32,000 nucleotides of DNA from Bellilinea caldifistulae. Its GTDB lineage: Bacteria; Chloroflexota; Anaerolineae; Anaerolineales; Anaerolineaceae. The position numbers and the translations under genes were made by a program. The notes under the pieces are model-generated. The model had not been told where the DNA came from. It ran no database searches and saw only the letters and a program-made list of their open reading frames with translations. Shown here piece after piece: positions 6,713-29,227 of this stretch (positions are counted from its first letter, which is position 1; each line of letters starts with the position of its first letter). The DNA lies in contig NZ_LGHJ01000012.1 in assembly GCF_001306055.1 (NCBI RefSeq), positions 180,001-212,000 of the forward strand, in the 5' to 3' direction.

Positions 6713-6744
6713 TGGCAGCATCCTTTCCGCTTTTCTGGTTGTAC

Positions 6745-7191
6745 CTATCCGCTGTAACCACGCCCAAGGATGTAATTTTCCAACCCCTGAATGGTGGTCT
6801 CTTTTTCCTCTAAAACCTGCTTGACCACATCGCCAATACTGATCAAACCAACCAGTTTGTGATTCTCATCCAGAACCGGCAGGTGGCGGATGTGCTTGGA
6901 GGTCATCAGCGCCATGCACTCTTCCACGGTTTGGGTGGGGCTGACATAATAAACCGCACGGGTCATCAAATCGCTGACCGGCTCATCCAGCAGCAGCGAT
7001 TCGCGTTGAGCCGCAAAGCGCGCATAATCCCGCTCCGAAAAGATGCCGGCAATTTTCTCTCCCTCCATCACCAGCACCGCGCCAATGTTCTTTTCGGCCA
7101 TTAACTTCAGCGTTTCGCGCACGGTAGCCGTCACCGGCACGCTCCAAACATCCGTTCCTTTAATCTTCAACAGGTTTTTCACAGTCGCCAT
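6745..7191 (-). CDS. CBS-pair domain protein (paralog 2)
   Basis: ORF 6745..7242. ATG at 7191 (MATVKNLL) with AAGGAG 9 nt upstream. Roughly 60% identical by eye to the downstream paralog. Confidence 0.8.
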   Translation of the reverse strand: MATVKNLLKIKGTDVWSVPVTATVRETLKLMAEKNIGAVLVMEGEKIAGIFSERDYARFAAQRESLLLDEPVSDLMTRAVYYVSPTQTVEECMALMTSKHIRHLPVLDENHKLVGLISIGDVVKQVLEEKETTIQGLENYILGRGYSG

Positions 7192-7278
7192 CAGGAAATC
7201 TCCTTTCGTCAAACACGGGTTGGGTGTCAGGGAAAATAACAAACAAAATCACAGGAAAAAACTCCAATTGGTAACTTT

Positions 7279-7307
7279 ATTATATAAGAATTCAAACCTG
7301 CCTTCAA
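7279..7307 (-). promoter_or_regulatory. Putative sigma70-type promoter for the CBS-CBS-rlmD operon (TTGAAG-17-TATAAT)
   Basis: Minus strand: -35 TTGAAG (7302-7307), 17-nt spacer, -10 TATAAT (7279-7284), about 80 nt upstream of the CBS start. Confidence 0.5.
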
Positions 7308-7430
7308 ACACCAAACGCAACTCTTAATTTGATTATGATAAGAACGGTGCAAGAGTCAAGTTGGCGGAGTAAGGTGGTTGGGTTATTTAAAAATCACCCG
7401 CATTAATCTGGTTTTTAATTTAACCAATAT

Positions 7431-8584: not shown

Positions 8585-9121
8585 ATGAAGCAACCCAAAC
8601 CCTGGTGGCAACAACCCGGTTTCCGGGTCGGCATTGCACTGGTGTTGCTGATTTTGCTTGGCGGAGCAGTCAGCGCGGTGTATCTCACCCAGATTCCACC
8701 CGAACAGCCAATCGCCTTCCCGCACAATCGGCACGTCGGATTGGGTGCGCCCTGCGCCTACTGTCACCCCGGCACCGCCTGGGGACCCAACGCCGGCCTG
8801 CCGGGTATTGACAAATGCTGGGGCTGCCACCAGCAAGTCCAGAAAAAGTCACCCGAACTGGAAAAACTGGCTGCCTACGTGGCAAACAACCAGCCAATTC
8901 CATGGGTGCCGGTTGCCATTCAACCGGAATTCGTCCACTTCAATCATCAGCCGCATGTCAGCGCCGGAATTGCCTGTGAGACCTGTCACGGGGATATGAC
9001 CAAAATGACCGTTGCCGAGCCGCAGCCGCGTCAGAACATGGGCTGGTGCCTTTCCTGTCATCAAAAGATGGCCCCGGAACAGTGGACCAAACTTTCCGAC
9101 TGCGCAACCTGCCATTATTGA
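8585..9121 (+). CDS. actA: ACIII subunit ActA, pentahaem cytochrome c
   Basis: ATG 8585 after GAAAGGAG. One TM helix. Five CxxCH motifs (CAYCH, CWGCH, CETCH, CLSCH, CATCH). Position upstream of a MopB/FeS/NrfD trio. Confidence 0.85.
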   Translation: MKQPKPWWQQPGFRVGIALVLLILLGGAVSAVYLTQIPPEQPIAFPHNRHVGLGAPCAYCHPGTAWGPNAGLPGIDKCWGCHQQVQKKSPELEKLAAYVANNQPIPWVPVAIQPEFVHFNHQPHVSAGIACETCHGDMTKMTVAEPQPRQNMGWCLSCHQKMAPEQWTKLSDCATCHY

Positions 9122-9140
9122 TTTGGAGCGAGGAAACAGC

Positions 9141-11294
9141 ATGAGCAATACCCTATCACGAAGAGATTTCCTGAAACTGAGCGGGCTGGGGGCGGCTGTT
9201 TCGGCAGTGCTGACCGGCTGCGGGCCAATGGCGCGCTACATCGTCCGCAAGCCATACACCAGCATGCCCGAATACAACCAGACCGGGCTGAGTACCTACT
9301 ACGCTTCCACCTGCCGTGAATGCCCGGCCGGATGCGGCATCATCGTTCGCACCAAGGAAGGCCGGGCGATCACCATCGAGGGCAATCCGCAACACCCCGT
9401 CAACCGCGGGCGGCTCTGCTCGCGCGGGGTAACCGCCCAGCAAGGTCTTTACAACCCCGACCGCATCCGCGGCCCGGTTTTTCAGGCACGCGGAGATGCC
9501 GGCCGTGCCAAAGCAATTACCTGGGACGAAGCCTTGAATGTCGTCCAGCAAGCCCTTGCCAGCTCACCTGACCAGATCGCCTTCCTGCTGGGGGCAGCCC
9601 CCGATCACCTGTTCGATCTGGTCAGCGAAATGACCGCCACGCTGGGCGCCCCTGCCCCCGTGCGTTACAACGCTTTGACCACCTTTGAGGGACGCACAAC
9701 CCTGCTCGAAGCAGCCCGGCTAACTTTTGGCGAGGAAACCCTGCCTTACTTCGACCTTGCCAACGCCGATGTGACTTTCGCCTTTGGCGCAAACTTCCTG
9801 GAAAACTGGCTTTCACCGGTGGCTTACACGCGCGCCTACGGCGAATTCCGTCAAGGACGCCCGACCCGGCGCGGTTATCTGGTCGTCTTTGAAGCCCGCC
9901 AGTCCCTCACCGCCGGCAATGCGGATGAGTGGATACCCATCCGGCCCGGCAGCGAGGCGATTCTGGCGGCTGTATTCAACCGGCTGGTGGCCGAAGCGCG
10001 CGGCAAGCCGGTTTCACCGGCTTTCAGCACGGTGACGGTCAGCGCCGCTGCAGCCGCCAGCGGAGTCAGCGAAGAGAAAATCCGCCAGCTGGCGCAACTC
10101 TTCGCCGCTGCCAGTCATCCACTCGCCATCCCCGGCGGCAGCGCCCTGGCTCAGGCTGACGGGTTGATGACGGCCCGCTCCTTGCTTTACCTGAACGCCG
10201 TGGTGGAAAACCTCGGCCAGCCCGGCGGCGTCTTCCTGACCCCGGCACAAGTCGCCGCCACCGATTTTGCAGCGGTCAAAGAGCTGGTGCGACGGATGAC
10301 CGACAGCAAAGTCAAGGTACTCTTCATTCACGGGGTCAACCCCCTGTTTGAACTGCCCGGTGCGCTGGGCTTTGGCGAGGCCCTCGCCAAAGTGCCACTG
10401 GTGATCTCCTTTGCTTCTTTCCCGGATGAAACCGCCCTGGCCAGCGATTACATCCTGCCCGACCATACGCCCCTGGAGTCGTTTGGCTACCAACGGGTGT
10501 TGGCGGGCAGCGACCGCCCGGCCTACTCCTCCTTCCAGCCGGTGGTGGTGCCGCTGTACGATACCCGCGCAACCGCCGATGTTCTGCTGGCAGCCGTCAA
10601 ACAACTGGGAATGGCAGCCGCACAGGCTTTCCCGTACAAAGACGAGGTGGAATACATCCAGCAAAAACTGCTCCCGCTGATTGAAGCGGGTGGATTTTAC
10701 ACCGCGCCGGAGATTTTCACCTTCTGGTCACGCTGGCTGCAATACGGCGGCTGGTGGAAGCCGCAAGCCGAGCTTTCTGCGCCACGGCAAGCCGTCCCAC
10801 CGGAAGAAGCCTTCCCCTTCACCCCGCCGGTGGAGTTAGAAGAAGGCAAGCAATTTTATCTGATCACTTTCCCCAATCACTTCGGGGATGGCAGTGGGGC
10901 GAATCGCCCATGGCTGCAAGAACTGCCCGATTGGATGACCACCGTCACCTGGAATTCGTGGGTTGAAATTCACCCCAAGACGGCCGAAGAACTCGGCCTG
11001 CACGATGATGATGTGGTGCGCATCAGCACCCCCTTCGGATTTGTGGAAGCCAGCGTCTATCGCTATCCCGCCATCCGGCCGGATACAATTGCCATACCCT
11101 TTGGGCAAGGGCACACTGCCCTGGGACGCTGGGCAGAAGGCCGCGGCTGCAATCCGGCTCAGGTACTGCCCACCACCACCAACGCCGCCGGTGACCTGAC
11201 TTTTGGCAGTGTTGTGGCCACCATCCTGCCGACCGGCAAACGCCGCCCGCTTGCTCGTGTGGAGAGCAAAGAAGGCATTTACGGCGAACATTAA
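9141..11294 (+). CDS. actB: ACIII subunit ActB, molybdopterin-oxidoreductase-like part (B1), Tat-exported
   Basis: ATG 9141 after GGAGCGAGGA. Twin-arginine signal SRRDFLKLSGLGAA. MopB-like N-terminal CX2CX3CX27C motif (9312-9419). Large MopB-type body. Confidence 0.85.
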   Translation: MSNTLSRRDFLKLSGLGAAVSAVLTGCGPMARYIVRKPYTSMPEYNQTGLSTYYASTCRECPAGCGIIVRTKEGRAITIEGNPQHPVNRGRLCSRGVTAQQGLYNPDRIRGPVFQARGDAGRAKAITWDEALNVVQQALASSPDQIAFLLGAAPDHLFDLVSEMTATLGAPAPVRYNALTTFEGRTTLLEAARLTFGEETLPYFDLANADVTFAFGANFLENWLSPVAYTRAYGEFRQGRPTRRGYLVVFEARQSLTAGNADEWIPIRPGSEAILAAVFNRLVAEARGKPVSPAFSTVTVSAAAAASGVSEEKIRQLAQLFAAASHPLAIPGGSALAQADGLMTARSLLYLNAVVENLGQPGGVFLTPAQVAATDFAAVKELVRRMTDSKVKVLFIHGVNPLFELPGALGFGEALAKVPLVISFASFPDETALASDYILPDHTPLESFGYQRVLAGSDRPAYSSFQPVVVPLYDTRATADVLLAAVKQLGMAAAQAFPYKDEVEYIQQKLLPLIEAGGFYTAPEIFTFWSRWLQYGGWWKPQAELSAPRQAVPPEEAFPFTPPVELEEGKQFYLITFPNHFGDGSGANRPWLQELPDWMTTVTWNSWVEIHPKTAEELGLHDDDVVRISTPFGFVEASVYRYPAIRPDTIAIPFGQGHTALGRWAEGRGCNPAQVLPTTTNAAGDLTFGSVVATILPTGKRRPLARVESKEGIYGEH

Positions 11295-11327
11295 TGTTAG
11301 CGATGAAATAACCAAGGAGAGAGACTC

Positions 11328-12044
11328 ATGGCTGAACAAAAAGCACCTCAAAAATGGGGACTGGTGGTTGATCTCGACCGTTGTACGGGCTGCAATGCCT
11401 GCATCGCCGCCTGCTCGATGGAAAATAACATCCCCTTCGTCGGTGAGGACGAAGTGGCTTACGGACGCGGGTTGTACTGGCTCTACAACAAACGGGAATG
11501 GCGCGGCGAATATCCCGAAATCAAGCCGGCCTTTGAACCGGTCATGTGCCAGCAGTGCGGCAACGCCCCCTGTGAACCGGTCTGCCCGGTCTTCGCCTCG
11601 GTGCATAGCGAGGAAGAGCAAATCAATCTGGCCGTCTACAACCGCTGCGTTGGCACCCGTTACTGCGCCAATAACTGCCCCTATCACGCCCGTCAGTTCA
11701 ACTACTTCGATTACGAGCTGCCCGAACCGATGAATTCCTACCTCAACCCGGATGTGACCGTTCGGCGCCGTGGCGTGATGGAAAAATGCACCTTCTGCGT
11801 CCAGCGAATTGTGCGCGGACGACAGAAAGCCGCTGCCGAGGGACGGGAAGTGGAAGACGGCGAGATTCAACCCGCCTGCGTTCAGGCCTGCCCGGCCGGT
11901 GCGCTGGTGTTTGGGGATGTGAGCAATCCCGAAAGCAAAGCCAGTCAGATGGCGCGCAATCAGCGCCGCTATCAACTGCTGGAAGAATTGGGCACGCTAC
12001 CCCGGGTAACCTATCTCAAAGGAGGAGGACGCTATGGCGGCTGA
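11328..12044 (+). CDS. actB: ACIII subunit ActB, iron-sulfur part (B2; PsrB/NrfC-like ferredoxin), encoded as a separate gene
   Basis: AAGGAGAG RBS. Cys clusters CTGCNACIAAC, CQQCGNAPCEPVCP, CVGTRYCANNCP, CTFC...CVQACP. Confidence 0.85.
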   Translation: MAEQKAPQKWGLVVDLDRCTGCNACIAACSMENNIPFVGEDEVAYGRGLYWLYNKREWRGEYPEIKPAFEPVMCQQCGNAPCEPVCPVFASVHSEEEQINLAVYNRCVGTRYCANNCPYHARQFNYFDYELPEPMNSYLNPDVTVRRRGVMEKCTFCVQRIVRGRQKAAAEGREVEDGEIQPACVQACPAGALVFGDVSNPESKASQMARNQRRYQLLEELGTLPRVTYLKGGGRYGG

Positions 12045-13476
12045 GACCAATTTGCTGCAAGCCGTAAAGCCAGCCGAACACGCGGAAGAAGACCCCCGCG
12101 AACATTTGATGTTCGACCCGCGCCCGCGCGAGGAAATGAACCGCATGGTCATGGAGGCGATGACCACCACCACCCGCCGCTACTGGATCTGGCTGATCGC
12201 CCTTGGGCTGGGTGTGGCGGTCTTGTTGTTTGGCGCCTGGGGCAACATGATTTTGACCGGCATCGGGGTTGCCGGTGTCCGCCGCCCCATCTTTTGGGGT
12301 GTGTTCATCGTCACCTTTGTCTTCTGGATCGGCATCAGCCATGCCGGAACGTTTGTGTCGGCCATCCTGCGAGTCTTCAAGGCTGAATTCCGCCGCCCCT
12401 TCACCCGGGCAGCCGAGTTGATGACCACCTTCGGGCTGGCAGCCGGTGCGCTTTACCCCCTAATCCATCTTGGGCGGGTGTGGGTGTTCTACTGGATGAT
12501 TCCCTATCCCAACGCTCGCTGGTTGTGGCCAAACTTCCGTTCCCCCCTGGTGTGGGACTTTCTCGCCATCACCACGTACCTGCTTTCCAGCACCATTTAC
12601 CTCTACCTGCCGCTGGTTCCCGACCTGGCCATGGCGCGTGACCGTACCAAAGGTTGGCGTCATACGATTTATAAGCTGCTGGCTCTGGGCTGGCGCGGCA
12701 CCGAGGCCGAGTGGTACCGCCTGCGTAAAGCCATCAACATCTTTGCCTTTGCCATCATCCCGGTCATGTTCTCGGTGCACACCATCGTTTCGTGGGACTT
12801 TGCGGTAGGCATGGTGGCCGGCTGGCATTCGACCATCTTCGGCCCGTATTTCATCGTTGGCGCAATCCTTTCGGGTGTAGCAGCCGTGGTGACCATTCTG
12901 TTTGTCCTGCGCAACACCATGAAACACTTCGACTACTTCATCCGCGTCGAGCATTTTGATGCGCTGGGTAAACTGCTGCTGGTCTTTTCAATGGCATGGG
13001 CTTACTTCTTCTTCAACGAGTACCTGCTTTCGTGGTACGGTGGCGATGCTGCCGTCAAACAGGTGCTGACCCTGCACGCTACCGGCCCGGCGGCGTGGGT
13101 CTGGTACACCATGCTGATCTGCAATGTCGCCATCCCCTGGCTGACGCTGTGGAATAAGACCATCCGCCGCACACCCTGGGCGATGTTCATCATCACCCTG
13201 CTGATCAATGTGGGCATGTACGCCGAACGCTACACCATCATCCCCCTCACCCTCGGCCATCAACGCAGCCCGTTTGATTGGGGTGTGTATAACCCACAGT
13301 GGACCGAAATCAGCATTGCGTTAGGCACATTGTGTTTGTTCATGTTCCTGTATCTGGCTGCCTCACGCCTCATCCCGCTGGTGCCGGTCTGGGAAGTACA
13401 GGAAGGTCAAATGGCGCACACTCTCCGCAAAGTCGGCAAAGCCGAGGTACCCTCGGTGACCGAACTGGAAGAGTAA
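12034..13476 (+). CDS. actC: ACIII subunit ActC, NrfD/PsrC-like polytopic quinol-interacting membrane subunit
   Basis: ATG 12034 after AGGAGGAGGA, overlapping the actB2 stop by 11 nt. 480 aa with many hydrophobic helices, NrfD-like. Confidence 0.85.
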   Translation: MAAETNLLQAVKPAEHAEEDPREHLMFDPRPREEMNRMVMEAMTTTTRRYWIWLIALGLGVAVLLFGAWGNMILTGIGVAGVRRPIFWGVFIVTFVFWIGISHAGTFVSAILRVFKAEFRRPFTRAAELMTTFGLAAGALYPLIHLGRVWVFYWMIPYPNARWLWPNFRSPLVWDFLAITTYLLSSTIYLYLPLVPDLAMARDRTKGWRHTIYKLLALGWRGTEAEWYRLRKAINIFAFAIIPVMFSVHTIVSWDFAVGMVAGWHSTIFGPYFIVGAILSGVAAVVTILFVLRNTMKHFDYFIRVEHFDALGKLLLVFSMAWAYFFFNEYLLSWYGGDAAVKQVLTLHATGPAAWVWYTMLICNVAIPWLTLWNKTIRRTPWAMFIITLLINVGMYAERYTIIPLTLGHQRSPFDWGVYNPQWTEISIALGTLCLFMFLYLAASRLIPLVPVWEVQEGQMAHTLRKVGKAEVPSVTELEE

Positions 13477-13491
13477 TCAAGGAGCAAACGT

Positions 13492-14028
13492 ATGGCTGCA
13501 AAAGTCGTTCATCTGGCACTTTTCAAAGAAGAACAAATTGATCACGCCGCCGAAGCCATCTCCCGCCTGCACGAACTGGGCATCAGCGATCGCGATATTT
13601 CGGTCATCTCCGGCATCCCATACTCCGAGCGCATCCTCGGAAGGCCAATGTCATGGACGAACATCGGCCGGATTGGGCTGGCTGGGGCAGTACTGGGCTT
13701 TCTGGTGGCAACGTTTTTGAACTTTGGTACTCCCTTGCTGTATCCCATTCGCGTGGCCGCCATGGGACTGACTCCCATCCCAACCTCGATTGTGGTTACC
13801 TTTGAACTGACCATGCTGGGTCTGTTGATCAGCACCTTCATCGGCGTATTCGTGGAAACCATCTCACCGTCGTTTGGGCCGAAAGGCTACCACCCCAAGA
13901 TCAGTGACGGACACATCGGCATCCTGTTCAGCGGCCCGGCTCAACTGGATGAAAAAATTCACACCGCCCTCAGCGAATTGGGCGCCGAAGTGGTACATGA
14001 GGTAGAGGAGGAGAAGTTATGGCCGTAG
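13492..14028 (+). CDS. actD: ACIII subunit ActD (DUF3341-like)
   Basis: AAGGAG RBS. N-terminal soluble segment VHLALFKEEQIDHAAEAISRLHELG followed by two TM helices. Conserved position after actC. Confidence 0.75.
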   Translation: MAAKVVHLALFKEEQIDHAAEAISRLHELGISDRDISVISGIPYSERILGRPMSWTNIGRIGLAGAVLGFLVATFLNFGTPLLYPIRVAAMGLTPIPTSIVVTFELTMLGLLISTFIGVFVETISPSFGPKGYHPKISDGHIGILFSGPAQLDEKIHTALSELGAEVVHEVEEEKLWP

Positions 14029-14546
14029 CCAAACGTTTGATCCTTGTTCTGGTGGTGCTGGCCAGCCCGTTGCTGATCGGCTTGCTTTTCACCTACGACA
14101 TCATCAAAATCGAGTGGATTTCCTTCATGGAAATTCAGCCCTCTTACCGTTCGATGGAAGCACCCCTGCCGCTGCCGCCTCGCTCAGTGCCGGTACAGGG
14201 AGCGGCTTACATCCCCGAACTGGGCGCACCGGCAAACCCCGTTCCGGCAACCGAGGAGTCGATTCAGCGCGGCAAGGAGTACTATGACAATGCCTGCGCT
14301 CTCTGCCACGGGGCAACCGGCAACGGCGGCGGGGCTTTCTCCGGTTTTCTGGTGCAGTACCCGCCCGCCAACCTGGTCAAGCCCGACGCCAACGCCCGTC
14401 AAATCAGCGATGGGGCAATTTTCCTGACCATCACCAACGGCATTGAAGGGCGTATGCCGGCGCTGATCGAAAACCTCCCAACCCCCGAAATGCGCTGGGA
14501 CGTGGTCAACTATGTGCGCCACCTGCAGCAACAGGCCACCCCCTGA
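14019..14546 (+). CDS. actE: ACIII subunit ActE, membrane-anchored monohaem cytochrome c
   Basis: ATG 14019 after GAGGAGGAG, overlapping the actD stop. N-terminal TM helix. Single CALCHG motif with distal Met region (GRMPAL). Confidence 0.8.
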   Translation: MAVAKRLILVLVVLASPLLIGLLFTYDIIKIEWISFMEIQPSYRSMEAPLPLPPRSVPVQGAAYIPELGAPANPVPATEESIQRGKEYYDNACALCHGATGNGGGAFSGFLVQYPPANLVKPDANARQISDGAIFLTITNGIEGRMPALIENLPTPEMRWDVVNYVRHLQQQATP

Positions 14547-14811: not shown

Positions 14812-15021
14812 ATGTCTGATCGTGTAGTTGGTAATGTCAAGTGGTTCAATAGTGAAAAGGGCTACGGTTTTATTTCTCAGGAAAACGGCCCGGATGTCTT
14901 CGTCCATCACACTGCCATTCAGGCGGAAGGCTTCCGCACATTGAACGAAGGGCAAAAAGTTGAATTTTCCATCGAAAAGGGTCCCAAAGGCTTGCAGGCT
15001 GCCCGCTTGACCATTCTGTAA
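14812..15021 (+). CDS. csp: Cold-shock protein (CspA family, 69 aa)
   Basis: ATG 14812 with GGAG 8 nt upstream. RNP1/RNP2 motifs KGYGFI and VFVHH. The ORF-track extension to 14629 is not credible. Confidence 0.95.
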
Positions 15022-15401: not shown

Positions 15402-15528
15402 CTTGGAATTGTGCGCTAATGTCCCCGTCAGCGGAATTGAAACGCTCCGACTTGAAGAAATTGACGAAAAATGATGGGGGACTTTTCCTTGATCTACCCA
15501 AACACCTCACCAATCCACCGCAGAGCCT

Positions 15529-16245
15529 CTAACACTCCAAAAAATTTACCTCGCTCTTATATTTTATACTTGTAATCGTTCCATCATGGAGGTTAATCAC
15601 ACAATCAGATTCTTCAGCAACACGCAAATCATGAGTGACGAGCAAGACGGATAGCGCTTTATCTTCTACCAGCGTGCGAAACAACTTAACAATTTCCATA
15701 CCCGTCTTTGAATCCAGGTTTCCCGTAGGTTCATCGGCCAAGAGAAGGGACGGTTCATGGATCAAAGCGCGTGCAATAACCACCCGTTGCTGTTCACCCC
15801 CCGATAACTCAGCCGGTAAATGATTGATCCGATTTCCAAGTCCTACCCATTCAATCAGGTGCATTGCCTTTTCTTTCAAGTTAAAACCCAATGAATGTTG
15901 ATAAGGCAGCAAGGGCAGCATCACATTTTCAATCACGGTCAGTACAGGCAAGAGGTGATAGAGTTGAAATACAAAACCGATATTCTTTCGGCGGAATGCC
16001 GTTATTTGATCTTCCGAAAGATTGGAATAGTTTACATCACCAACGATAATATGCCCTGATGTAGGTTTATCTATCCCCGCAATCAGGTTCAGCAAAGTGG
16101 TTTTTCCACTACCCGATGGTCCAATGATTGTGGTGAGTTGAGTTTTCTTTACTTCCAGGTCTAAATTATGTAGGGCTGTGACTTTATTAAAGCCGGTATC
16201 ATACACCTTGGATACGCCAGAACAAATCACGATTGAATTTTTCAT
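15529..16245 (-). CDS. ABC transporter ATP-binding protein, MacB/LolD/FtsE-type
   Basis: Walker [10 protein letters not shown], signature LSGGEQQR, Walker [10 protein letters not shown]-loop VTHD. The start overlaps the permease stop (ATGA). Confidence 0.95.
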
Positions 16246-19200
16246 TTCATTTCATCCATCAGGTTTTGAAGCGCAACATAGGAAAAAGAGGTAAATTGGG
16301 AAAGTTTGTCCATTTCAATCGTGGAAATATCATCAAAAAGCGAGCCGATAAATTCATTGCCTGCCCCACAAAGACCAACAGATGGTAAATTCGCTGAAAG
16401 TAAGATAGATAACGATAGTGGACAGGTGTAATTCGTTGATTTGATAGAAACGCCGAATGATTCGCCTGTTTTTAAGATTGAATTCCGTAATATCTCAGGA
16501 CTTTCACTAAGGCCCATCTTCTTTTCCAACAATCCATTTAGCCAATCCATTAAGTTTGGATCATCCAGATTGATGCTCATCATCCAATTTTCTCTTACCC
16601 TTGCAATATCTATTTCCTGATTATTGATATCCGATGAACTCAAGTCATTGTCCACAGCGATATATTGCCAGTTACCCGTCTGTGAAATATCTATTACCCC
16701 CACAACACTTGGAATTTCTGTTAAATGATTCTGAATATATGCTATCAGCCCACTATATTGGCTGGCCAGTCCCGGCAACCAGATAAAACGAAGCGTATAA
16801 GGCGTTCCGGATTCAGCAAATTGTCGAGCCAGCTCCAATAGCGTAACCGTCCCTGTAAGGCTTAAATCTGCCGCAGGAGTACCTTCTCTGGCATCGTAAT
16901 GAGTGGTGACCCAAATTTCTTTTTCCGGATATACGCTACCCCGAATGGTTGCTCCCAAAACCTTTGCTTGATAAAACTTTATTTCAACATTTTTCTCCAT
17001 AACTTGTTTTACATCTGAAGAAATTCCTGCAGGGTCTTGAAGCGCAACACCCACAATACCCATGGGAAGAGCACATTTTTTTTCAAGCAGCTCCACCACG
17101 GGATGAATGAAATGGACAGGCTCACGGCTATGACCAGCCAGCATTAACCATCTTTGATCCAAGGAATCACAGACCTCTATCACTTGGTCAATTGGGCTAT
17201 AAATTAACGGTGTTCTTTGGTTCAGAAGATTTGAAGCAAGCTTAAAGTGGGTCGCAGAAGTTACCAGCGACATTGGATTCCCTTCATTGCGATAAGGCAG
17301 TAATTGAAACACAAGATTTTGCTGTTGATCAAAGATATCTGCGGTTTGGTAAGGGACCCACTCTTCATAAACATTCACCCCCATTAAGGATAATTTTTGA
17401 AGCAATATCCGGACAATGATCTCGTTTCGGTCATTCAAGGAAGAAGCGGATTCCATTACCCCATTCAATTCTTTCATAACTTCATTGATTTGATTTTCGT
17501 CTATTGTCAGGTCTCCATTACCTTTGGTGGAAAGCGGAGTTTGCACTGTCGGCAAAGAAGTGATGCGGATAAGATTTCCAGCCAGATAATTAACAAGACC
17601 AATGAAAAGTAAAAGCAGTAACAGAATTTGCCCAAACTTGAAACGATGTGTAGATGAGCGTACGCCCGGAAGATGAAGATACGCCAACGATTTTGAAGTG
17701 CCAACCCAACAAGCGATTAAGATCAGCGCCAAGGCAACTCCAAGGATAGAGAGGTTTAATCCTAGAAAATTTGCAGGGATACCTTTCCAAAATGAAACCG
17801 CTATCATGCCCAATAAAACACCCATAACACCAAAAATCCCCCCCCGCATGAAACTTTCATAAAAGACCATTCTAAAGAGTTGTTTCTTATCCCAACCTAT
17901 GTACACCAAAGTTCTGAATTCAGTTTCTCTTTGTGCCACATTCAGCACAACATTTTGGACGAGAATCAATATCCCTATTAGCAATGAACAAGCGGTCAGG
18001 AGTAAATAATAGGGCGAAAGACTGATCATTAAGTGTTTCCCAAGCAAATTTAGATTCACATCTCCTTTATTAACAGACCAGATATAAATCATTGATACAA
18101 AGGTGAAAGTAATTAAGCCAATAGAAATTCCATTGACGAGATACCGTCTCGGCCGTCGTCTTATTTGATAAAGAACCAATTTACTAAATGTAAAATCAGT
18201 AGAGCAATTTCTTCTTTTTATTGAAGTTTCGCCAAAATGTAGAAGGTGGTAGCTTCTCTTTCTCACCTCATTCATGAACAACGGGAGACTGGACACGATA
18301 GAAACCCCTCCGACAACGCTACCGATGGTCACAATTTCACGAATAGAAATATTCAGATCCAACAAAATGGAGAGAAAAAGGATTAAAACCGTAAGCGGGA
18401 CAATCCCCCAAACGGTGATCCATGAAATATACTTTACCAGCCTTCGAAGAATATAACGATTCTCCCATCCTAGCGCCTTCAACAAACCAATTTCAGGCAG
18501 TGTAGAGAGAACAAATAAATTAGTATTTGTAATAATCAACAAAATAGAGCCGATTAACAAAAGAAGCAATAGAATTAGGTTTATTAAGTTAACACCGCTC
18601 TCAATATATTGGGTAGATCCCAAGGAAGTCCAATTTTCTTCAACGTACCCTATCCCCGGAACATATAAAAGAATTTTTTGGGGAGATGCACCAGCCACAA
18701 TGTCAACATGAAGACCGGTTTTTTCTTGAATTTCGGTGGCAATTCTTTCAATTTTATGAACATTTTCGGATGAATACCCCGATATATCGCGTATTCGCAC
18801 TCTGATCGCATCAATATAGTCAGGCCGTCCCACCAAGTACTGAGCAGCCTCAAGGGTTGTTAAACCTAATGGTGGTCGGGGATTAAAACTACCCGGATTC
18901 AAGCCCGGAGAAAGCAACTTAGGTTCTAGAATGGAACCGTTTTCGTCATATACCAGTACTTCTTGCGGCGGTTCATAAATTCCGAGGGGAACGTAAGATA
19001 GCGGGTCTAATCGCTGGATAATTGACCCAATATTATATACGCCTTTTACATCAGGAATAAATGGCAGCGGCTTAATTGCTTCCAATGAGCGAAAAACAGT
19101 TTGCTCACCATTAAGTAACGGCAAGTTCTTCAAAAATTGGGGGTCAAATTTTGATCTCGCTTCTGCATCCAATTCATTCCGAACAATTTCCTCCCAATTA

Positions 19201-20318
19201 CCATATGGTTTGATACTAAAGTGAGATGGAAAATCTTCCGAACCTTCATGAAATTCATACTTAAAAATGCCGGGACGAAGAATTATATTTGAGTCAAGAG
19301 GTATATAACCTCCTTCTGCCTCCAATCGGGGTGGTTTATTGGTTGAAAAAACTACAGACTGAAGGACAAGCGGACGGAGGGCGCTTGATAAATCATATCT
19401 TTGACGAATTAATACTTCCCCCTTTTGGTCCAATTCCACCATTTTTTCACGCAATACTTCATTCGACTCATCCTCCTTTAACTTCTCGACATCCTCAGAT
19501 TGGATAGGCAGCTTTCGTAATAATATTTCAACACCCAAGTTGATAAAACTTTGACGATTGACCAACAGGGGTATTTTTACTGCCTTTTGTTTAACCCCAT
19601 CTAAACCTACTTTAAGCTCTTCGTTTTGGAGATAGTCCCCCTCTTCAATCGCCTCGTCTAATCCGATTAACTTGGCTTCGGCTTCGGGATCAATCCCTGC
19701 CACCAGTATCCATTGAGGAGGCAAAGAACCAATATTAAGAGAAGCCCAATCTCCTACCATCCCGGCACCGCTAAAAGACAGATCGCCTTTCAAAAAATCA
19801 TTAAATAGAAAATTATCATCGCTTTCAGCAAAATAAGCGCTGGGCGTTGGAAATTCCTGGACGACAGCCTCATCGCCATACCATCCTATTTTCATTTCAT
19901 ATAAATTATTAGGTAGATAGGGCTCAATTCTGACCGCGATGCTCCCCAAATTATTCATCATAAACCCAACCACCGAAATCGGAGCAGCGACTTCCACATC
20001 CGGCATGCTTTTTATCCACTCATATTGTTCTTCCGTGATTCCACCTTGTGATGCTCCAAGGTAATTTCCTTCTACTATGCCATGTTCTTTTTCTACCTGA
20101 GTGATTGCCGTTTGAGGCCGGAGAAGTAAATCATACGCTCCACGCCAATGTTGGGAAAGTTGTGCGGTCGTTTTTATTTCGATTGTGTGAAGGATGATTA
20201 CGAAAACCAATAGACCAACATATAAAATCCCCAGACCAATGATTGTAATCGGAATCTGACTTTCCAAACCCCTTATCAGTTTGATTTGGATTTTTTTGAC
20301 TTTGGCAGAAATATTCAT
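16242..20318 (-). CDS. Giant (about 1358 aa) FtsX/MacB-type ABC permease: TM1, ~530-aa extracytoplasmic domain, FtsX module 1, TM5, short loop, FtsX module 2, TM9, and a ~440-aa C-terminal extracytoplasmic PA/M28-like domain
   Basis: Uninterrupted ORF 16242..20333. ATG at 20318 preferred: GGGGAG 7 nt upstream and a TAATG overlap with the upstream small ORF. FtsX-like helices (e.g. LLKALGWENRYILRRL, FRTLVYIGWDKKQLFRMV). C-terminal motifs WVTTHYDA, PAADLSLTGTVTLLELARQF and VVGVIDIS resemble M28 aminopeptidases. Confidence 0.85.
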   Translation of the reverse strand: MNISAKVKKIQIKLIRGLESQIPITIIGLGILYVGLLVFVIILHTIEIKTTAQLSQHWRGAYDLLLRPQTAITQVEKEHGIVEGNYLGASQGGITEEQYEWIKSMPDVEVAAPISVVGFMMNNLGSIAVRIEPYLPNNLYEMKIGWYGDEAVVQEFPTPSAYFAESDDNFLFNDFLKGDLSFSGAGMVGDWASLNIGSLPPQWILVAGIDPEAEAKLIGLDEAIEEGDYLQNEELKVGLDGVKQKAVKIPLLVNRQSFINLGVEILLRKLPIQSEDVEKLKEDESNEVLREKMVELDQKGEVLIRQRYDLSSALRPLVLQSVVFSTNKPPRLEAEGGYIPLDSNIILRPGIFKYEFHEGSEDFPSHFSIKPYGNWEEIVRNELDAEARSKFDPQFLKNLPLLNGEQTVFRSLEAIKPLPFIPDVKGVYNIGSIIQRLDPLSYVPLGIYEPPQEVLVYDENGSILEPKLLSPGLNPGSFNPRPPLGLTTLEAAQYLVGRPDYIDAIRVRIRDISGYSSENVHKIERIATEIQEKTGLHVDIVAGASPQKILLYVPGIGYVEENWTSLGSTQYIESGVNLINLILLLLLLIGSILLIITNTNLFVLSTLPEIGLLKALGWENRYILRRLVKYISWITVWGIVPLTVLILFLSILLDLNISIREIVTIGSVVGGVSIVSSLPLFMNEVRKRSYHLLHFGETSIKRRNCSTDFTFSKLVLYQIRRRPRRYLVNGISIGLITFTFVSMIYIWSVNKGDVNLNLLGKHLMISLSPYYLLLTACSLLIGILILVQNVVLNVAQRETEFRTLVYIGWDKKQLFRMVFYESFMRGGIFGVMGVLLGMIAVSFWKGIPANFLGLNLSILGVALALILIACWVGTSKSLAYLHLPGVRSSTHRFKFGQILLLLLLFIGLVNYLAGNLIRITSLPTVQTPLSTKGNGDLTIDENQINEVMKELNGVMESASSLNDRNEIIVRILLQKLSLMGVNVYEEWVPYQTADIFDQQQNLVFQLLPYRNEGNPMSLVTSATHFKLASNLLNQRTPLIYSPIDQVIEVCDSLDQRWLMLAGHSREPVHFIHPVVELLEKKCALPMGIVGVALQDPAGISSDVKQVMEKNVEIKFYQAKVLGATIRGSVYPEKEIWVTTHYDAREGTPAADLSLTGTVTLLELARQFAESGTPYTLRFIWLPGLASQYSGLIAYIQNHLTEIPSVVGVIDISQTGNWQYIAVDNDLSSSDINNQEIDIARVRENWMMSINLDDPNLMDWLNGLLEKKMGLSESPEILRNSILKTGESFGVSIKSTNYTCPLSLSILLSANLPSVGLCGAGNEFIGSLFDDISTIEMDKLSQFTSFSYVALQNLMDEMK

Positions 20319-20560
20319 TAAGAATCTCCCCAATTAACCTGAATACAATAACTACTTCCTTCACCCTCGATATAGACATTCCACACTGCTCTGTATTGCG
20401 GAGAAAAAACGGTTTGGGCAGATGGCGATACAGATATCTCTGCTGGTATATAATTCGGCTGAGGGGGTGTTTGCGGGTATCCTAATACATTTGTACTGCC
20501 AATAGCAAGAAACATCATCAATCCTACGAAGAAAATGACAAGTGACTTCTTGAACGTCAT
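20318..20560 (-). CDS. Small secreted protein (80 aa; signal peptide plus ~53-aa mature part), first gene of the island operon
   Basis: ATG 20560 with GGAG 5 nt upstream. Signal peptide MTFKKSLVIFFVGLMMFLAIGSTNVLG. The stop TAA overlaps the permease ATG. Low-GC codon usage like its neighbours. Confidence 0.65.
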   Translation of the reverse strand: MTFKKSLVIFFVGLMMFLAIGSTNVLGYPQTPPQPNYIPAEISVSPSAQTVFSPQYRAVWNVYIEGEGSSYCIQVNWGDS

Positions 20561-20604
20561 TTTTTCTCCGTTTCCAAAAAAGTTCAGAGATGCTCCTGAA
20601 AAAA

Positions 20605-20632
20605 ATTATAATAAAAAACTTACTTCTGTCAA
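20605..20632 (-). promoter_or_regulatory. Consensus sigma70 promoter of the island operon (TTGACA-16-TATAAT)
   Basis: Minus strand: TTGACA (20627-20632), 16-nt spacer, TATAAT (20605-20610), about 45 nt upstream of the small-ORF ATG. Confidence 0.75.
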
Positions 20633-20798
20633 TAATCAGAACCAATTTCTAACCGTAAAGATGGATATTTTTACTTACCTTCTAAACCCCAATGAAAATC
20701 ACAGGACTTTGATGGTTAAGAATTGTTTAGAAAATTAAGATTTGCCCGTTTTTTAGACTTGTTTTTCAAAGAAGGGGCTAATAAGTTATACTTTTGTT

Positions 20799-22004
20799 TT
20801 ACTGCAAAAAATTCAGCGGATCCACCTTGCCGTACACATCGCTGCGCATTTCAAAGTGGAGGTGCGGGCCGGTCGAACGACCGGTGGAACCCATCAAACC
20901 GATCAGATCGCCCTGATAGACACTCTGTCCGCAGACCACATTGATCTGGGAGAGATGGGCGTAGTAAGTCTGCCACCCGTTGCCGTGATCAATCACAATC
21001 AGGTTGCCGTAGCCAAAGTCGTTCCAGCCGGCATAGACAATCACGCCGTTATCGGATGCGTAAATGCCCACACCGGTCGAACCGCCAATATCAATGCCGA
21101 AGTGGTTAATTTCCGGCTGATAGCGGTAACCGGAGATGTAGCGCGTGGCCGCCGGCCAGACGAATGTACTGGTACCCACCGCCCCGTCATACACCGTACC
21201 GCAGTAACCCGGACCAACCGTTTTGGCAACCGCCGGATTATCACGTGTAATACGCGGCATGTTCCAGGTGATGAATTGGCCTTCGCCGCCGGGGATAAAC
21301 AAAACCGTGCCGGGTTGGATATTGGGAGCAGCAAAATCACCCACACTCTCCAGCGTCAGGTTGTTACTGGGCCAGTTGATGATGTCCTCGGGAGTCACTT
21401 TGAAGAAGCGCGAGACAGCATTCAAACCATCCCCCGCATGCCACTCATAAACCGCCCCGTCGGTTGGCGGAATTTTGATCACCTGTCCGGGGGTGATCCA
21501 GTGCGGGTCACCCAGTTCTTTGGGATTGGTCCACATCAGCGATTGGGGCTTGAGGCCAAAACGCTCGGCAATGGTAAACAGGGTATCGCCGGGTTGAATT
21601 TCGTATTCCACAAAATCGAAACGCGGGCGGCTTGGCAGGGTGGTATGCAGCAATGCCAGCCGGAAAATACCATGCACCATGTTGTTTGCGGCCGGGTCAA
21701 AGCGAGGCGGTTCAATGGTCGGGGTAGCCGTGGGCAACGAAGCAGCAACTGCCGCAGTTTGAGGTGTTGCCACCTGACCTTTGAGGTAGAAGTTGCTCAT
21801 CACCCAAACCACCATCAGCACCAGCGCCAGCGAAGCCAAACCGCTACCAATCCGCATGGCGGCCTCTCCCAGCCCCATTTCCACCACGGTTTGCCATAAA
21901 TCGCCTATCCCGCCGGCTTTGAGTGACGGACTGACTGGATCGCTCTGTTTGGTTGAGTCAAGATCGGCACGGAACGGATCGTTCGGTGGCGATGTTTCGG
22001 TCAT
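20799..22004 (-). CDS. Membrane-anchored LysM-domain M23 (LytM-type) peptidoglycan endopeptidase
   Basis: TM anchor LASLALVLMVVWVM. LysM motif YEIQPGDTLFTIAERFGL...GQVIKIP. M23 motifs HFGIDIG and GSTGRSTGPHLHFEMR. Confidence 0.92.
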   Translation of the reverse strand: MTETSPPNDPFRADLDSTKQSDPVSPSLKAGGIGDLWQTVVEMGLGEAAMRIGSGLASLALVLMVVWVMSNFYLKGQVATPQTAAVAASLPTATPTIEPPRFDPAANNMVHGIFRLALLHTTLPSRPRFDFVEYEIQPGDTLFTIAERFGLKPQSLMWTNPKELGDPHWITPGQVIKIPPTDGAVYEWHAGDGLNAVSRFFKVTPEDIINWPSNNLTLESVGDFAAPNIQPGTVLFIPGGEGQFITWNMPRITRDNPAVAKTVGPGYCGTVYDGAVGTSTFVWPAATRYISGYRYQPEINHFGIDIGGSTGVGIYASDNGVIVYAGWNDFGYGNLIVIDHGNGWQTYYAHLSQINVVCGQSVYQGDLIGLMGSTGRSTGPHLHFEMRSDVYGKVDPLNFLQ

Positions 22005-25084: not shown

Positions 25085-28000
25085 TTAATGCCGTCGGCGT
25101 TTCTTCTTGCGAGCCGAACGGGAGGCTTCGTCCTTGCGTTCGACTGCTCCGGCCACCACATTTTCGGGCCTGGCTGCCGTCTCCACGCTGCTGCGGTCGC
25201 GTTCAACCTGCACCGTTGCACTGCGGCTGGGCTGGTAGGTGAACATCCGCGCCACCACGCCGCCGCGAATATCCTTGAGCAATTGCGAGAATAACTCCGT
25301 TGCCCGGCTCTTGTACTGCACCAGCGGATCACGCTGAGCATAGGCTTCCAGCCCAATTGAAACACGCAGGGCATCCACCCGTGTCAGGTAATCCACCCAC
25401 AATTGGGAGATCACCCCCAGCAGAATTTCGCGGTAGATTTGATTTTGTAAGCGCTCGCCCAACACACGCGCAATTTCCTGCAAGTCTTCGGCAGGCAATT
25501 CTTTCAAGTCACTTTCGGCAATTTCTTCAAAGCGTTCGTTGCCCAGCACGGCACGCAGGCGTTCCTGCAAGGGTTGACTCAGACGCGAAAGCGGCGTTTC
25601 GGTCTGAATCAGACGGCGCAATTCATAATTGCCCCACACCCGTTGCAATGCCAGCCGCGCGCCTTCGAGATGTTCCAGAATCTCCTCGCTGAGTTCCTCC
25701 GCATCACGGCCTTCCAGCAAACCAGCTGCCAAAAAGATGTAGGTCATGCGGATGACTTGCTGCCGTCCCCGCCGATGCGTGCGGCGGTCGAACGTCAGGC
25801 GAGTGCCTTGCGTCATGATCCCCAGCAGCCCCAGCAAAGCTGCCTGATTTTGCGCAAGCAGGATTTTCCCGTCCCCCACCCGTTCGAGGGCGGCATCCAG
25901 ATCCCGGGCGATCGGACCATCCGGGCTGGAAAGCCGTTCAACCCGCTCGTTGAGCAATCGTTCAACCTCACCGTACAACATCCGGGCTGCCTCGTCCCAG
26001 TCGCTGCCCATGTACTGAGCCGGACGGGCATCCAGTTCCTCAATGCGCCGTTGAATCGCCCCAATCACCCGGTTTAGCGTTACCGACATCAGCGCAGCCT
26101 CAACCTGCTCCTTTACCCGCTCGGCCAGATGATCGCCCCCCTGCGCCAGGGCGCGCATCTCTTCACTGCTCAAACGCAGCGGTACGCGCACCAGCCCGGA
26201 GAGTTCTTCCACCAGTTCCTGCGGGCGCAAACTGCCGCCGGACTCCTCCAGCCGGTCCGGCAATCCTTCAAAAAAGGTGTCCACAGTTTCCAGCCGCTCG
26301 GCCAGTTGCTGCTGGATAGCCTCTTCGCTGCGCTCCAGCAAACTTTCAATCGCCCGCAGCAGATGATTGCGCTCGGCTTCCAGCGCCCGGCGGGCTAACT
26401 CCAACAGCGCCCTCCGCAGTTGATCGGCGGTGATGGCTTCCTCGCCAAATTGCTCCTCAATTTCGTCCATCATCAGGCGTAAGGTGTAGGAGGGATAGGC
26501 CACCCCCTCAAAAGTGATTGGCGGCTGAATGTCTTCCAGATACGCCAGCAATTTCCACGGCCCTTCTTCATCGGTCAAAGCCGTTTCAACCCGGTTTTTC
26601 AGTTCGTTTTGCAGCATTTCGCGGACATCCTCGCTCAGGTCTTCTTTGGTAAAGACCCGGTCACGCTGCTCGTAGATGCGCTTGCGCTGCATGTTCAGCA
26701 CATCATCGTACTCAAGCAGGTGCTTGCGGATGTCGAAGTTATTGCCTTCCACCCGCGCCTGGGATTGCTCCACCAGTTTGGCAACCAGATTATTCTCAAT
26801 CGGCAGACTTTCGTCAATATTCAACCGCGCCATCAGGTTTTCCACCTGCGCGCCGCCAAACAGACGCATCAGGTCATCCTCCATGGAGAGATAAAAGCGG
26901 GAAGAACCGGGGTCACCCTGACGGGCAGCCCGTCCGCGCAACTGATTGTCTATCCGGCGGGCTTCGTGGCGTTCCGAGCCAATCACATGCAGACCGCCCA
27001 GTTCCCGCACCTTTTCCATCTCATCCATGTACTGCAAAAAGGCACGCACCGATTCTTCATAAATCCCGTAATCGGCCGGATTCATTTCCAAAAGCAGTTT
27101 TCGGCGCTGCTCGTTGGTCATCTCGTAGGGGTCGTCGCCGGCGCTTCTCAACACCCGGTTGACATCCGCCAGAATATCCTCGTCGAGTTCACCGCCCAGT
27201 TTGATATCCACACCGCGCCCCGCCATGTTGGTGGCAATCGTAACCGCACCGAAGGCGCCGGCGCGCGCAATAATCAGAGACTCTTCATCGTGTTTGCGGG
27301 CATTCAAAACCTGATGCGGCACACCGCCCTGCAACACCCTGACCAGTCGCGGACGGTCTTCTTCTCTCAAATTGAGCAAATTCAGTAACCGCTCCACATT
27401 TTCCGGGTCTTCCGGGTTGATGGAGGTCATCCCGACCGAGCGGGCAAAATTGCGCAATTCGGCGGTGTTCAGGTCGGGCAACGGTTTGTACAAAAACTGC
27501 AATTCGGGAATGGCGGTCTCACTTTCCTGCCGGTTGTGCTTGCGCAGCCAGGCATCTCGAATCAACATCACCTGCATTAAACGACGCAGCAATTCGGGCT
27601 GCAGGCGCAGCGAAAGCCGCTCCGAATGCTCCACCGATGTGGTACCCACCAATTGCGGCCGGCCGCGCACATGGTAGTGGATGATTTCCTGCACAATGGC
27701 ACGGATTTTCGCCTCTTCGGTGCGATAAATCACATCCGGGTAGTCTTTGCGTTTCCAGAACACTGGCGCTTTGAGCGGGTCATCCCGCCGGGCGTAATAG
27801 GTGTATTTATAGCCGTATTCGTCCTTGCCTTGCACTTCCACCAGTGTCGGGTTGGGTTGTATCGCCTTATATTCCAGATTGGTGGGAATGGGCAGCACTT
27901 CCAGTTTGTAAATTTTGGCGAATTCTTCCGCCTCGGTCAGCGCCGTTCCGGTCATACCGGCCAGTTTTTCGTACATGCGGAAGTAATTTTGAATGGTGAT

Positions 28001-29206: not shown

Positions 29207-29227
29207 AAACAATCACCTCTCTGCGGG

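Follow-up and report, generated by a model that had tools for sequence, protein, structure and literature searches.

A degenerate M28 aminopeptidase domain at the C terminus of a type VII ABC permease in Bellilinea caldifistulae and its relatives

ATP-binding cassette (ABC) systems of type VII, such as MacB, LolCDE, FtsEX, and YbbAP, are understood to be motors whose mechanical work takes place outside the membrane. One extracytoplasmic partner of such a motor is EnvC, whose LytM domain we take to be catalytically dead. FtsEX-EnvC is a type VII ABC system that works mechanically on an extracytoplasmic partner with a hydrolase fold (PMC7668044, PMC12505981). In Escherichia coli YbbAP-TesA (PDB 9ge6), a fused double-FtsX permease presents material to an attached periplasmic partner, which also has a hydrolase fold (PMC12646458). 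Here, we describe a locus of Bellilinea caldifistulae in which a double-FtsX permease carries a domain of the M28 aminopeptidase fold as its own C terminus. The window that we analyzed is a stretch of 32,000 nucleotides (contig NZ_LGHJ01000012.1, positions 180,001 to 212,000), and the permease gene lies on its minus strand. Since a gene for a small secreted PKD-like protein precedes the permease gene in most loci and an ABC ATPase gene follows it, the conserved unit is a three-gene cassette: small protein, fused double-FtsX permease, and ATPase. We propose that the M28-like domain is probably a non-catalytic binding module of this type VII cassette, with the tail of the small protein as its putative ligand.

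A first-pass annotation, made from the letters of the window, had noted that the C-terminal domain resembles M28 peptidases. The peptide strings that it quoted are present, where it had placed them, in the minus-strand open reading frame (ORF) 16242..20333. This ORF was delimited mechanically from a TTG at 20333, five codons before an ATG at 20316-20318. The ATG is almost certainly the real start of the permease, because the same codon begins the gene in near-identical sister loci. Residue numbers used here follow the TTG-based ORF (1-1363), and ATG-based numbers are lower by 5. Pfam places FtsX in two stretches of the permease (E = 1.8e-11). A search with the full-length protein returned about 25 homologues over the whole length, with 1,360 to 1,430 amino acids, mostly from metagenome-assembled genomes of Anaerolineae. 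Among the compared loci, which we designate by L numbers, the permease orthologues of L087 and L093 are 94.8% and 99.6% identical to that of the window.

The M28 homology of the domain is clear only after the full-length search and with a family profile, unlike in searches with the single domain sequence. A word-indexed homologue search with the window domain alone found 2 proteins only, and phmmer against the PDB gave no significant match for it (best E = 0.063). The Pfam profile PF04389, which the first-pass annotation had named as a check, did match the window domain, albeit marginally: 21.9 bits against a cut-off of 21.3 (E = 1.6e-4), with residues 1128-1186 aligned to positions 4-63 of 193, the N-terminal third of the profile only. 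We built the family profile from a 20-sequence alignment of the homologues' C-terminal domains. All 20 aligned members match PF04389 (best, 3.6e-20). Against the PDB, the family profile matched 2ek8 (1e-22), YwaD/BSAP 6hc6 (2e-20), PaAP (9e-15), and Vibrio AAP 1amp (3e-10), and it also matched M28 homologues known not to be peptidases, namely nicalin (6e-9) and transferrin receptor (0.014), with glutaminyl cyclases among its distant matches. An AlphaFold2 model of the window domain had a predicted local distance difference test (pLDDT) score of 85.8 and a predicted template modeling (pTM) score of 0.88. With this model, Foldseek returned 6hc6 first (3e-19, probability 1.0), followed by 2ek8, PaAP, transferrin receptor 1 (TfR1; 2e-16), and GCPII, at TM-scores of about 0.5. 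The family profile, the fold, and the PF04389 matches thus confirm the resemblance, and they show that the domain descends from PA-domain-containing M28 zinc aminopeptidases of the YwaD/BSAP type.

The closest enzymes by profile and fold are YwaD/BSAP of Bacillus subtilis (6hc6), the aminopeptidase of Aneurinibacillus sp. AM-1 (2ek8), and PaAP of Pseudomonas aeruginosa (8ac7-8acr), with Foldseek values of 3e-19 to 1e-16. The elements of the window domain follow the same order as in these PA-M28 enzymes, namely N-terminal helices, a putative PA-like insertion, H-x-D, GA-x-D, E-E, N-x-D, and H-x-x-x-D. In the model, the insertion (model residues ~78-191) consists of alternating beta and alpha elements, with the first M28 strand before it and the strand ahead of H-x-D after it. 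The family profile aligns contiguously through the PA region of 2ek8 and 6hc6, with low posterior there, and the Foldseek alignments of the domain model run full length over ~460 columns. However, the Pfam PA profile (PF02225) had no match at E<=1 in the window domain, nor at E<=0.01 in the 20 family members. The PA-like insertion suggested earlier agrees with alignment, pattern, and fold, while the PA profile itself is silent, and we regard it as putative.

Unlike the PA-M28 enzymes, which are free and secreted, the window domain is the C terminus of an ABC permease with nine transmembrane (TM) helices. We scanned 1.84 billion cluster representatives exhaustively with HMMER and obtained 1,933 proteins at E<=1e-3. 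About 20 of these cover the whole domain, nearly all at the C terminus of proteins of 1,330 to 1,430 amino acids, and the rest match in the canonical core only. The M28-like domains on the permease are a small, distinct M28 subfamily.

We counted catalytic residues after aligning 32 members of the family and 16 canonical M28 proteins, the latter drawn from the HMMER scan and each with the H-x-D, GA-x-D, E-E, N-x-D, and H-x-x-x-D motifs. This alignment is in accord with the HMMER alignments to 2ek8 and 6hc6. The general-base Glu, replaced by Leu1189 in the window, is present in 0 of the 32 family members and in 16 of 16 canonical proteins. At the adjacent ligand position (Ala1190 in the window), Glu occurs in 8 of the 32 and again in all 16. 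Counts for the other ligand positions are listed in Table 1. One of the five metal ligands survives in the window domain, and the structural Asp1334 after Gly1330 is retained.

These alignments uphold part of what had been read from the letters and correct the rest. WVTTHYDA is indeed the H-x-D motif (His1145 and Asp1147), the acidic pair is lost in LRFIWLPGLASQYSGL, where Leu1189-Ala1190 stand in place of Glu-Glu, and the last His is lost in GSLFDDISTI, with Gly1330 at its position. GTPAADLSLTG and VVGVIDISQTG, which had been equated with the GA-x-D and N-x-D motifs, are homologous segments read out of register. In the first, Asp1156 (16866-16868) sits one residue ahead of the bridging-Asp position, which is Leu1157. 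In the second, Asp1215 (16689-16691) aligns with the canonical Asn, two residues away from the ligand position, which is Ser1217. The loss of the Glu-Glu pair and of the last His was thus correctly noted, but one ligand of five is left and not three. We also considered a His-to-Asp exchange at the last ligand ("YDT/FDD") and the Asp of "VID" as the fourth ligand, and both were rejected on the HMMER and MAFFT alignments to canonical sequences. Because it has other residues at the general-base position and at four of the five ligand positions, unlike the PA-M28 enzymes, the window domain is predicted to be unable to work as a co-catalytic zinc aminopeptidase.

As the loss is seen family-wide, we take it to be old and not a defect of one genome. 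Among distant M28-like versions on the same permease, those from Clostridia (L074, L078) keep the Glu-Glu pair and have lost the other ligands, and in those from Chloroflexia (L058, L073, L079) the degeneration goes further still. We calculated ratios of nonsynonymous to synonymous substitution rates (dN/dS) by the Nei-Gojobori method for the C-terminal domain and for the rest of the protein. Against L087, dN/dS was 0.32 for the domain and 0.35 for the rest; against L006 (65% amino acid identity), the values were 0.22 and 0.19. The family also conserves motifs without a counterpart in canonical M28 proteins: GLSESP, (E)GQY(F), a G-N-W after the fourth motif, and a pair of Cys residues. These features (GQY, NW, GLSESP, and the Cys pair) fall within ~40 extra residues between the fourth and fifth motifs that set the domain apart from the PA-M28 enzymes. 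A disulfide between Cys1304 and Cys1322 is possible and would fit an extracytoplasmic site. Invariant positions of the domain are mostly Gly, Pro, Leu, and Tyr, together with Asp1334. Because dN/dS is like that of the rest of the protein and the family-specific features are conserved, the reading of the domain as a pseudo-enzyme maintained under purifying selection, and not as debris, is well supported by these comparisons. The pseudo-enzyme first proposed from the window is borne out in this sense, with the general base and the last His absent from all 32 members and the bridging Asp present in 2.

Hydropathy and the positive-inside rule gave nine TM helices with a cytoplasmic N terminus, and an AlphaFold2 model of residues 1-925 (pLDDT 78) shows the same helices. 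The first FtsX module carries the single large extracytoplasmic domain (ECD) of the permease. At the equivalent place, the second FtsX module has an external loop of 13 residues. TM9 is missing in relatives without the C-terminal domain, and such permeases end right after TM8. Because TM9 takes the chain back across the membrane, the M28-like domain is predicted to be extracytoplasmic, tethered by TM9 beside the large ECD.

With the model of residues 1-925, Foldseek returned MacB, LolCDE, YbbAP, Spr0694-0695, HrtBA, FtsEX, YtrEF, and BceAB, at TM-scores that are low owing to the large novel ECD. The cassette belongs to the MacB/LolCDE/FtsEX/YbbAP class of ABC systems (type VII, "mechanotransmission"). 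Matches of the permease to NCBIfam models were insignificant, and it is not an FtsX orthologue. The ATPase has intact Walker A, signature, Walker B, and H-loop motifs, and its start codon shares bases with the permease stop codon (ATGA). Its top NCBIfam matches are LolD, DevA, FtsE, YbbA, and MacB, with every score under the respective equivalog cut-off. An ATPase gene downstream of the permease is conserved across the cassette loci compared, while other flanking genes vary by lineage; in one locus, L090, the gene after the permease leaves the contig end and is unannotated.

By analogy, the cassette would work most like FtsEX-EnvC and YbbAP-TesA. However, we place it in neither system, because its external domain is of another clan and is fused instead of docked, there is no coiled coil, and no conserved hydrolase is found nearby. 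EnvC, a protein in its own right, uses a coiled coil to dock on the ECD of FtsX and activates amidases. It belongs to M23, whereas the dead domain of the window is of clan MH and has a covalent link to the permease by way of an extra TM helix, and no cognate hydrolase is conserved near the cassette. YbbP is among the few Foldseek matches that cover the whole permease model. Nevertheless, TesA is a separate and active SGNH esterase, and YbbP has 10 TM helices and two external domains, as opposed to the 9 TM helices, one giant ECD, and fused inactive M28 domain of the window permease.

A non-catalytic ectodomain of the M28 fold with a PA-type insertion is also found in nicalin and TfR1, where it is a binding or receptor module of a membrane complex. 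Nicastrin is a further fold-level analogue. Catalysis was lost independently in these proteins. In contrast to the window permease, nicalin and TfR1 are single-pass and eukaryotic and have no ATPase-driven transporter; their ligands are known, while for the window domain we infer one. No description of an FtsX permease fused to an M28 domain was found in the open-access literature, where absence is no proof of novelty. As far as that literature goes, the fusion of FtsX and a dead M28 domain is previously undescribed, and related arrangements are known.

The candidate ligand is encoded within the cassette. A small same-strand gene directly upstream of the permease specifies a product of 120 to 147 amino acids with a Sec-type signal peptide, and it is found in 11 of 13 informative loci of the M28 type (L003, L004, L006-L008, L010, L013, L020, L022, L074, and L078). 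The mature N terminus is proline rich, with the consensus PQPxYIPxEIxVSP, followed by W.V..G..Y..V.WGD and H.F..G.S.F.QTW...Y...VYK. No Pfam or NCBIfam model matched the protein significantly, and we call it "PKD-like" only for its motif resemblance (WGD..., H.F..G...Q.W..., V.V). Its family is as rare as the permease, with 12 clusters found. Three homologues that were found by sequence and then looked up all precede an FtsX(+M28) permease of 1,335 to 1,382 amino acids, and in two of these three loci an ATPase gene is annotated directly downstream. In the Chloroflexia loci L015, L017, and L019, the permease lacks TM9 and the domain. A related small protein is present there without the proline-rich tail, its mature form beginning directly at "...SISP..Q." The proline-rich tail and the M28-like domain thus occur together.

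The aminopeptidase fold is suited to holding a free N terminus. For this reason, and because tail and domain occur together, the most economical hypothesis would have the tail of the small protein held in the dead cleft. In the mechanism that we propose, the domain would be a putative binding module without catalysis, and the cytoplasmic ATPase, by binding and hydrolyzing ATP, would drive its position or accessibility. The likeliest ligand of the domain would be the free tail PQPxYIPxEI of the mature small protein, and the vestigial aminopeptidase cleft would be reused so that the N terminus is held, not cut. The machine might then release, display, or neutralize that protein. The role in "binding or regulation" that the first-pass annotation gave to the pseudo-enzyme is a reasonable inference. 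More tentatively, and as a possibility that we do not favor, the cassette may be an undescribed type VII machine in which the tethered dead aminopeptidase is the receptor for the secreted protein's proline-rich N terminus, and ATP hydrolysis grips, releases, or repositions that protein on the surface.

The state of the cassette in the window bears on this proposal. Relative to L086-L088, sister loci that share its flanks, the window shows a deletion, ~370 bp long, that removed the 3' half of the small gene and the intergenic region, so that a truncated gene remains. The permease has lost eight residues of its domain in frame. This second deletion is common to the window and L093, which comes from an independent sequencing run, and it is not present in L087 or L006. 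In L093, the intergenic region is intact, and the small gene carries a nonsense codon (TAT>TAA). The sub-lineage of the window and L093, which is without the domain motif, has thus inactivated the small gene twice independently, while the sister lineage keeps both intact. Between the permeases of the window and L093 there are 6 nonsynonymous differences and a single synonymous one, which are tiny counts, and two of the changes in L093 lie in GLSESP. These differences would fit relaxed constraint. Because the small gene is truncated and the domain is without a conserved eight-residue motif, the system looks partly disabled in the window genome. The linked decay is the best evolutionary hint, though an anecdotal one, that the domain and the small protein may work together.

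Several observations weigh against the proposed binding module. The co-occurrence of tail and domain comes from two clades, with ~12 loci against 3 to 5, and may reflect phylogeny instead of function. No small gene was detected upstream of the permease in the M28-type lineages L001/L009 and L012. The small protein also accompanies permeases without the domain, and so the domain is not needed for every interaction. His1145, Asp1147, Asp1156, and Asp1215 leave a residual acidic/His cluster that is compatible with a remodeled single-metal site. Lastly, the 6:1 ratio against its nearest relative suggests that the local permease copy may no longer function at all.

The cassette forms a low-GC island at ~15500-20800, with 41% GC within DNA of 56-58% GC. 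The same contrast between cassette and host is seen in L087, L006, and L008, while in other lineages the cassette matches the GC content of its host. Because of the contrast with the flanks, we conclude that the cassette has moved horizontally, including into Clostridia (L074, L078). In L006 (Bellilinea sp. H69_726), a transposase-like ORF of 468 amino acids (4545-5951, plus strand) lies between the small gene and the permease, where the window has its deletion.

We used the permease alignment to scan species-representative genomes and obtained 80 loci. The N-terminal 900 residues occur with four C-terminal forms: a dead M28 domain, an M1 peptidase, one or two small beta domains, or nothing. 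Among the scanned loci, the dead M28 head is found in Chloroflexota and two Clostridia. The M1 head, with HExxH-x18-E intact, is found in Rossellomorea, Planococcus, Brevibacillus, and others, on permeases of ~1,400 to 1,660 amino acids (~1,520 in the three genera named). Many Bacillaceae have one or two small beta domains instead (proteins of ~1,080 to 1,280 amino acids), and headless relatives have ~880 to 990. The Bacillota paralogues share the N-terminal 900 residues with the window permease at 24-28% identity over 58-67% of the query, and those with a C-terminal module have the same extra TM helix followed by the external module. Their gene order is ATPase and then permease, with no gene for a small secreted protein upstream. 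Because the same N-terminal 900 residues carry four different C-terminal forms, the C-terminal module looks like an exchangeable specificity head.

We weighed four other explanations against the binding module. The best of them, which we still hold to be unlikely, is toxin immunity or export. The small protein would be bacteriocin-like or otherwise a harmful effector, and the dead aminopeptidase would be a decoy or capture site that protects the producer or aids release, as in the lactococcin-972 gene trios or in target protection of the BceAB type. The trio of a small Sec-signal protein, FtsX-type permease, and ATPase is indeed conserved, and it is mobile, lying 15 GC points under the host in four lineages. 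The ATPase also scores 185.4 bits on TIGR03608 ("putative bacteriocin export ABC transporter"). However, that score falls short of the cut-off (254.85), the matches to LolD, DevA, and FtsE are stronger, and the small protein matches no bacteriocin or other family in Pfam and NCBIfam; the low score and the small protein's lack of a family separate the cassette from the lactococcin-972 trios. PADLOC likewise had no model match for the permease or the small protein, and the ATPase gave only generic ABC/AAA matches. Two losses of the small gene, with the long ORF of the transporter still open, make a pattern of "orphan immunity." Nonetheless, constraint on the transporter seems relaxed where the small gene was lost, and this fits co-dependence better than retained immunity.

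It is also improbable that the domain is an EnvC-like regulator, the analogy drawn in the first-pass annotation. The dead M28 domain would bind a separate hydrolase of the cell wall or surface and switch it on or off, here perhaps a LysM-M23 endopeptidase, and the ABC motor would gate the activation; FtsEX-EnvC and FtsEX with RipC, PcsB, or CwlO are precedents. A gene for a LysM and Peptidase_M23 protein with intact HxxxD and HxH lies immediately upstream of the cassette (20799-22004, minus strand), and Bellilinea relatives (L006, L086-88) have the same neighbor. However, the M23 gene lies in host DNA of 56% GC, in contrast to the cassette, and it is not adjacent to the cassette in L001-L005 or L089-L091; upstream in L090 is a LysM-CAP protein, with no M23 gene listed. 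We therefore rejected the LysM-M23 protein as a conserved regulated hydrolase. No coiled-coil adaptor is present, none is seen in the domain model, and the permease is not an FtsX orthologue by NCBIfam. The analogy is not supported by the context, as the domain is fused via an extra TM helix and the sole conserved extra partner is the small PKD-like protein.

We see just as little chance for a structural role without a specific ligand, in which the domain would be a second "jaw" opposite the ~520-residue ECD, or would serve oligomerization, and in the window might be a decaying relic. The short external loop of the second FtsX module would leave room for such a jaw, and the matches by structure and by profile include transferrin receptor (whose M28-like domain mediates dimers), GCPII, and nicalin. 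A relic would agree with the window allele, which lacks a conserved motif and shows the 6:1 ratio. On the other hand, relatives work without a C-terminal domain or with quite different ones (M1, small beta), as expected of a specificity module and not of a generic jaw, and the family-wide dN/dS of ~0.2 and the conserved family-specific surface motifs suggest a defined interaction.

Finally, a remodeled catalytic domain for hydrolysis or another reaction, with a new single-metal or metal-free site built from His1145, Asp1147, Asp1156, and Asp1215 or from the GLSESP, GQY, and NW motifs, is very improbable: these motifs are conserved, position 1156 is D/N in 28/32, 1215 is D/E in 22/32, and 1147 is D in 25/32, glutaminyl cyclases (a mono-zinc M28 fold) are among the distant profile matches, and the M1 paralogues show that catalytic modules occur on this chassis, but none of the candidate catalytic residues is invariant (in 12/32, position 1145 has P, R, Q, S, or A instead of His), the ligands that glutaminyl cyclases have (an Asp for the bridging Asp, a Glu for the ligand Glu, and a His for the last His) are missing in the window domain, and the invariant positions are mostly the Gly, Pro, Leu, Tyr, and Asp1334 named above. 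The binding module is thus the reading that we prefer.

A few neighboring genes were recorded as well. Positions 9012-14546 of the window (plus strand) hold genes that resemble an alternative complex III operon, with a molybdopterin-oxidoreductase-like subunit bearing a twin-arginine translocation (TAT) signal, a membrane subunit that resembles NrfD, ActD, and a cytochrome c. After this run comes a gene for a cold-shock protein (14842-15021). A SecA homologue (25085-29212, minus strand) has 1,375 amino acids, far more than usual, with large insertions inside its DEAD and P-loop domains by Pfam coordinates. Upstream of the cassette in L004 (3454-7324, plus strand) are five consecutive genes for products of 207 to 280 amino acids with no Pfam match, one of which (6683-7324) has an N-terminal hydrophobic, signal-like stretch.

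Table 1. Positions of the cassette genes and of the features of the permease in the window, and loci of M1-type relatives. Family, 32 aligned members; canonical, 16 M28 proteins.
Feature	Position or loci	Strand	Details
ABC ATPase, LolD/FtsE/MacB type	15529..16245	-	Pfam ABC_tran, 8e-35; directly downstream of permease
Permease gene, two fused FtsX modules and C-terminal M28-like domain	16242..20318	-	1,358 codons from ATG at 20316-20318
Truncated small gene with signal peptide	20318..20560	-	80 codons; TAA stop overlaps permease ATG
Beta-rich extracytoplasmic domain, first FtsX module, TM1-TM2	18609..20162	-	~520 amino acids; hydropathy, AlphaFold2 model
Ninth TM helix	17568..17636	-	Residues 900-922; hydropathy/positive-inside rule and AlphaFold2 helix
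Predicted extracytoplasmic PA-M28-fold domain, catalytically degenerate	16245..17561	-	ORF residues 925-1363 (439 residues)
Putative PA-like alpha/beta insertion, boundaries approximate	16989..17330	-	ORF residues ~1002-1115; contains RWLMLAG at 17133-17153
First His ligand	16899..16901	-	His1145, sole surviving metal-ligand equivalent; His in 20/32 family, 16/16 canonical
Bridging Asp position (GA-x-D)	16863..16865	-	Leu1157; Asp in 2/32 family, 16/16 canonical
General-base Glu and ligand Glu positions (E-E)	16764..16769	-	Leu1189-Ala1190
Second ligand Asp position (N-x-D-x-x-G)	16683..16685	-	Ser1217; Asp in 11/32 family, 16/16 canonical
Junction of 8-residue in-frame deletion	16593..16598	-	Val1246/Arg1247; KTEGQYLA lost, including the family's nearly invariant G-Q
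Conserved Cys pair	16368..16424	-	Cys1304 (16422-16424), Cys1322 (16368-16370); alignment C380/C398, nearly invariant; absent from canonical M28
Last His position (H-x-x-x-D)	16344..16346	-	Gly1330; His in 0/32 and Gly in 26/32 family; His in 16/16 canonical
Bacillota loci with Peptidase_M1 head	L024, L025, L028, L031, L033, L044, L055, L056, L062, L064, L066, L068, L069, L080		

A different external task has come to light with each type VII member newly characterized. In this cassette, the external effector would be a dead aminopeptidase that is part of the motor itself, and a plausible dedicated client protein would be encoded next to it. The cassette would also offer a clean bacterial example of an M28 pseudo-enzyme, and it would show that heads can be exchanged on one permease chassis, among them an M1 peptidase that seems to be live. 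Cultured carriers exist for the M28-like version (Brassicibacter mesophilus DSM 24659) and for the paralogues (Rossellomorea, Halobacillus, and Exiguobacterium). The family is rare and mostly known from metagenome-derived Chloroflexota genomes, and therefore the immediate impact would be on specialists and not broad. If the receptor reading is true, the domain would be a bacterial counterpart of the reuse of the aminopeptidase fold by nicastrin and nicalin in eukaryotic membrane complexes, and the wider permease chassis would serve as a modular base for exchangeable external heads, be they dead M28, live M1, or beta-sandwich.

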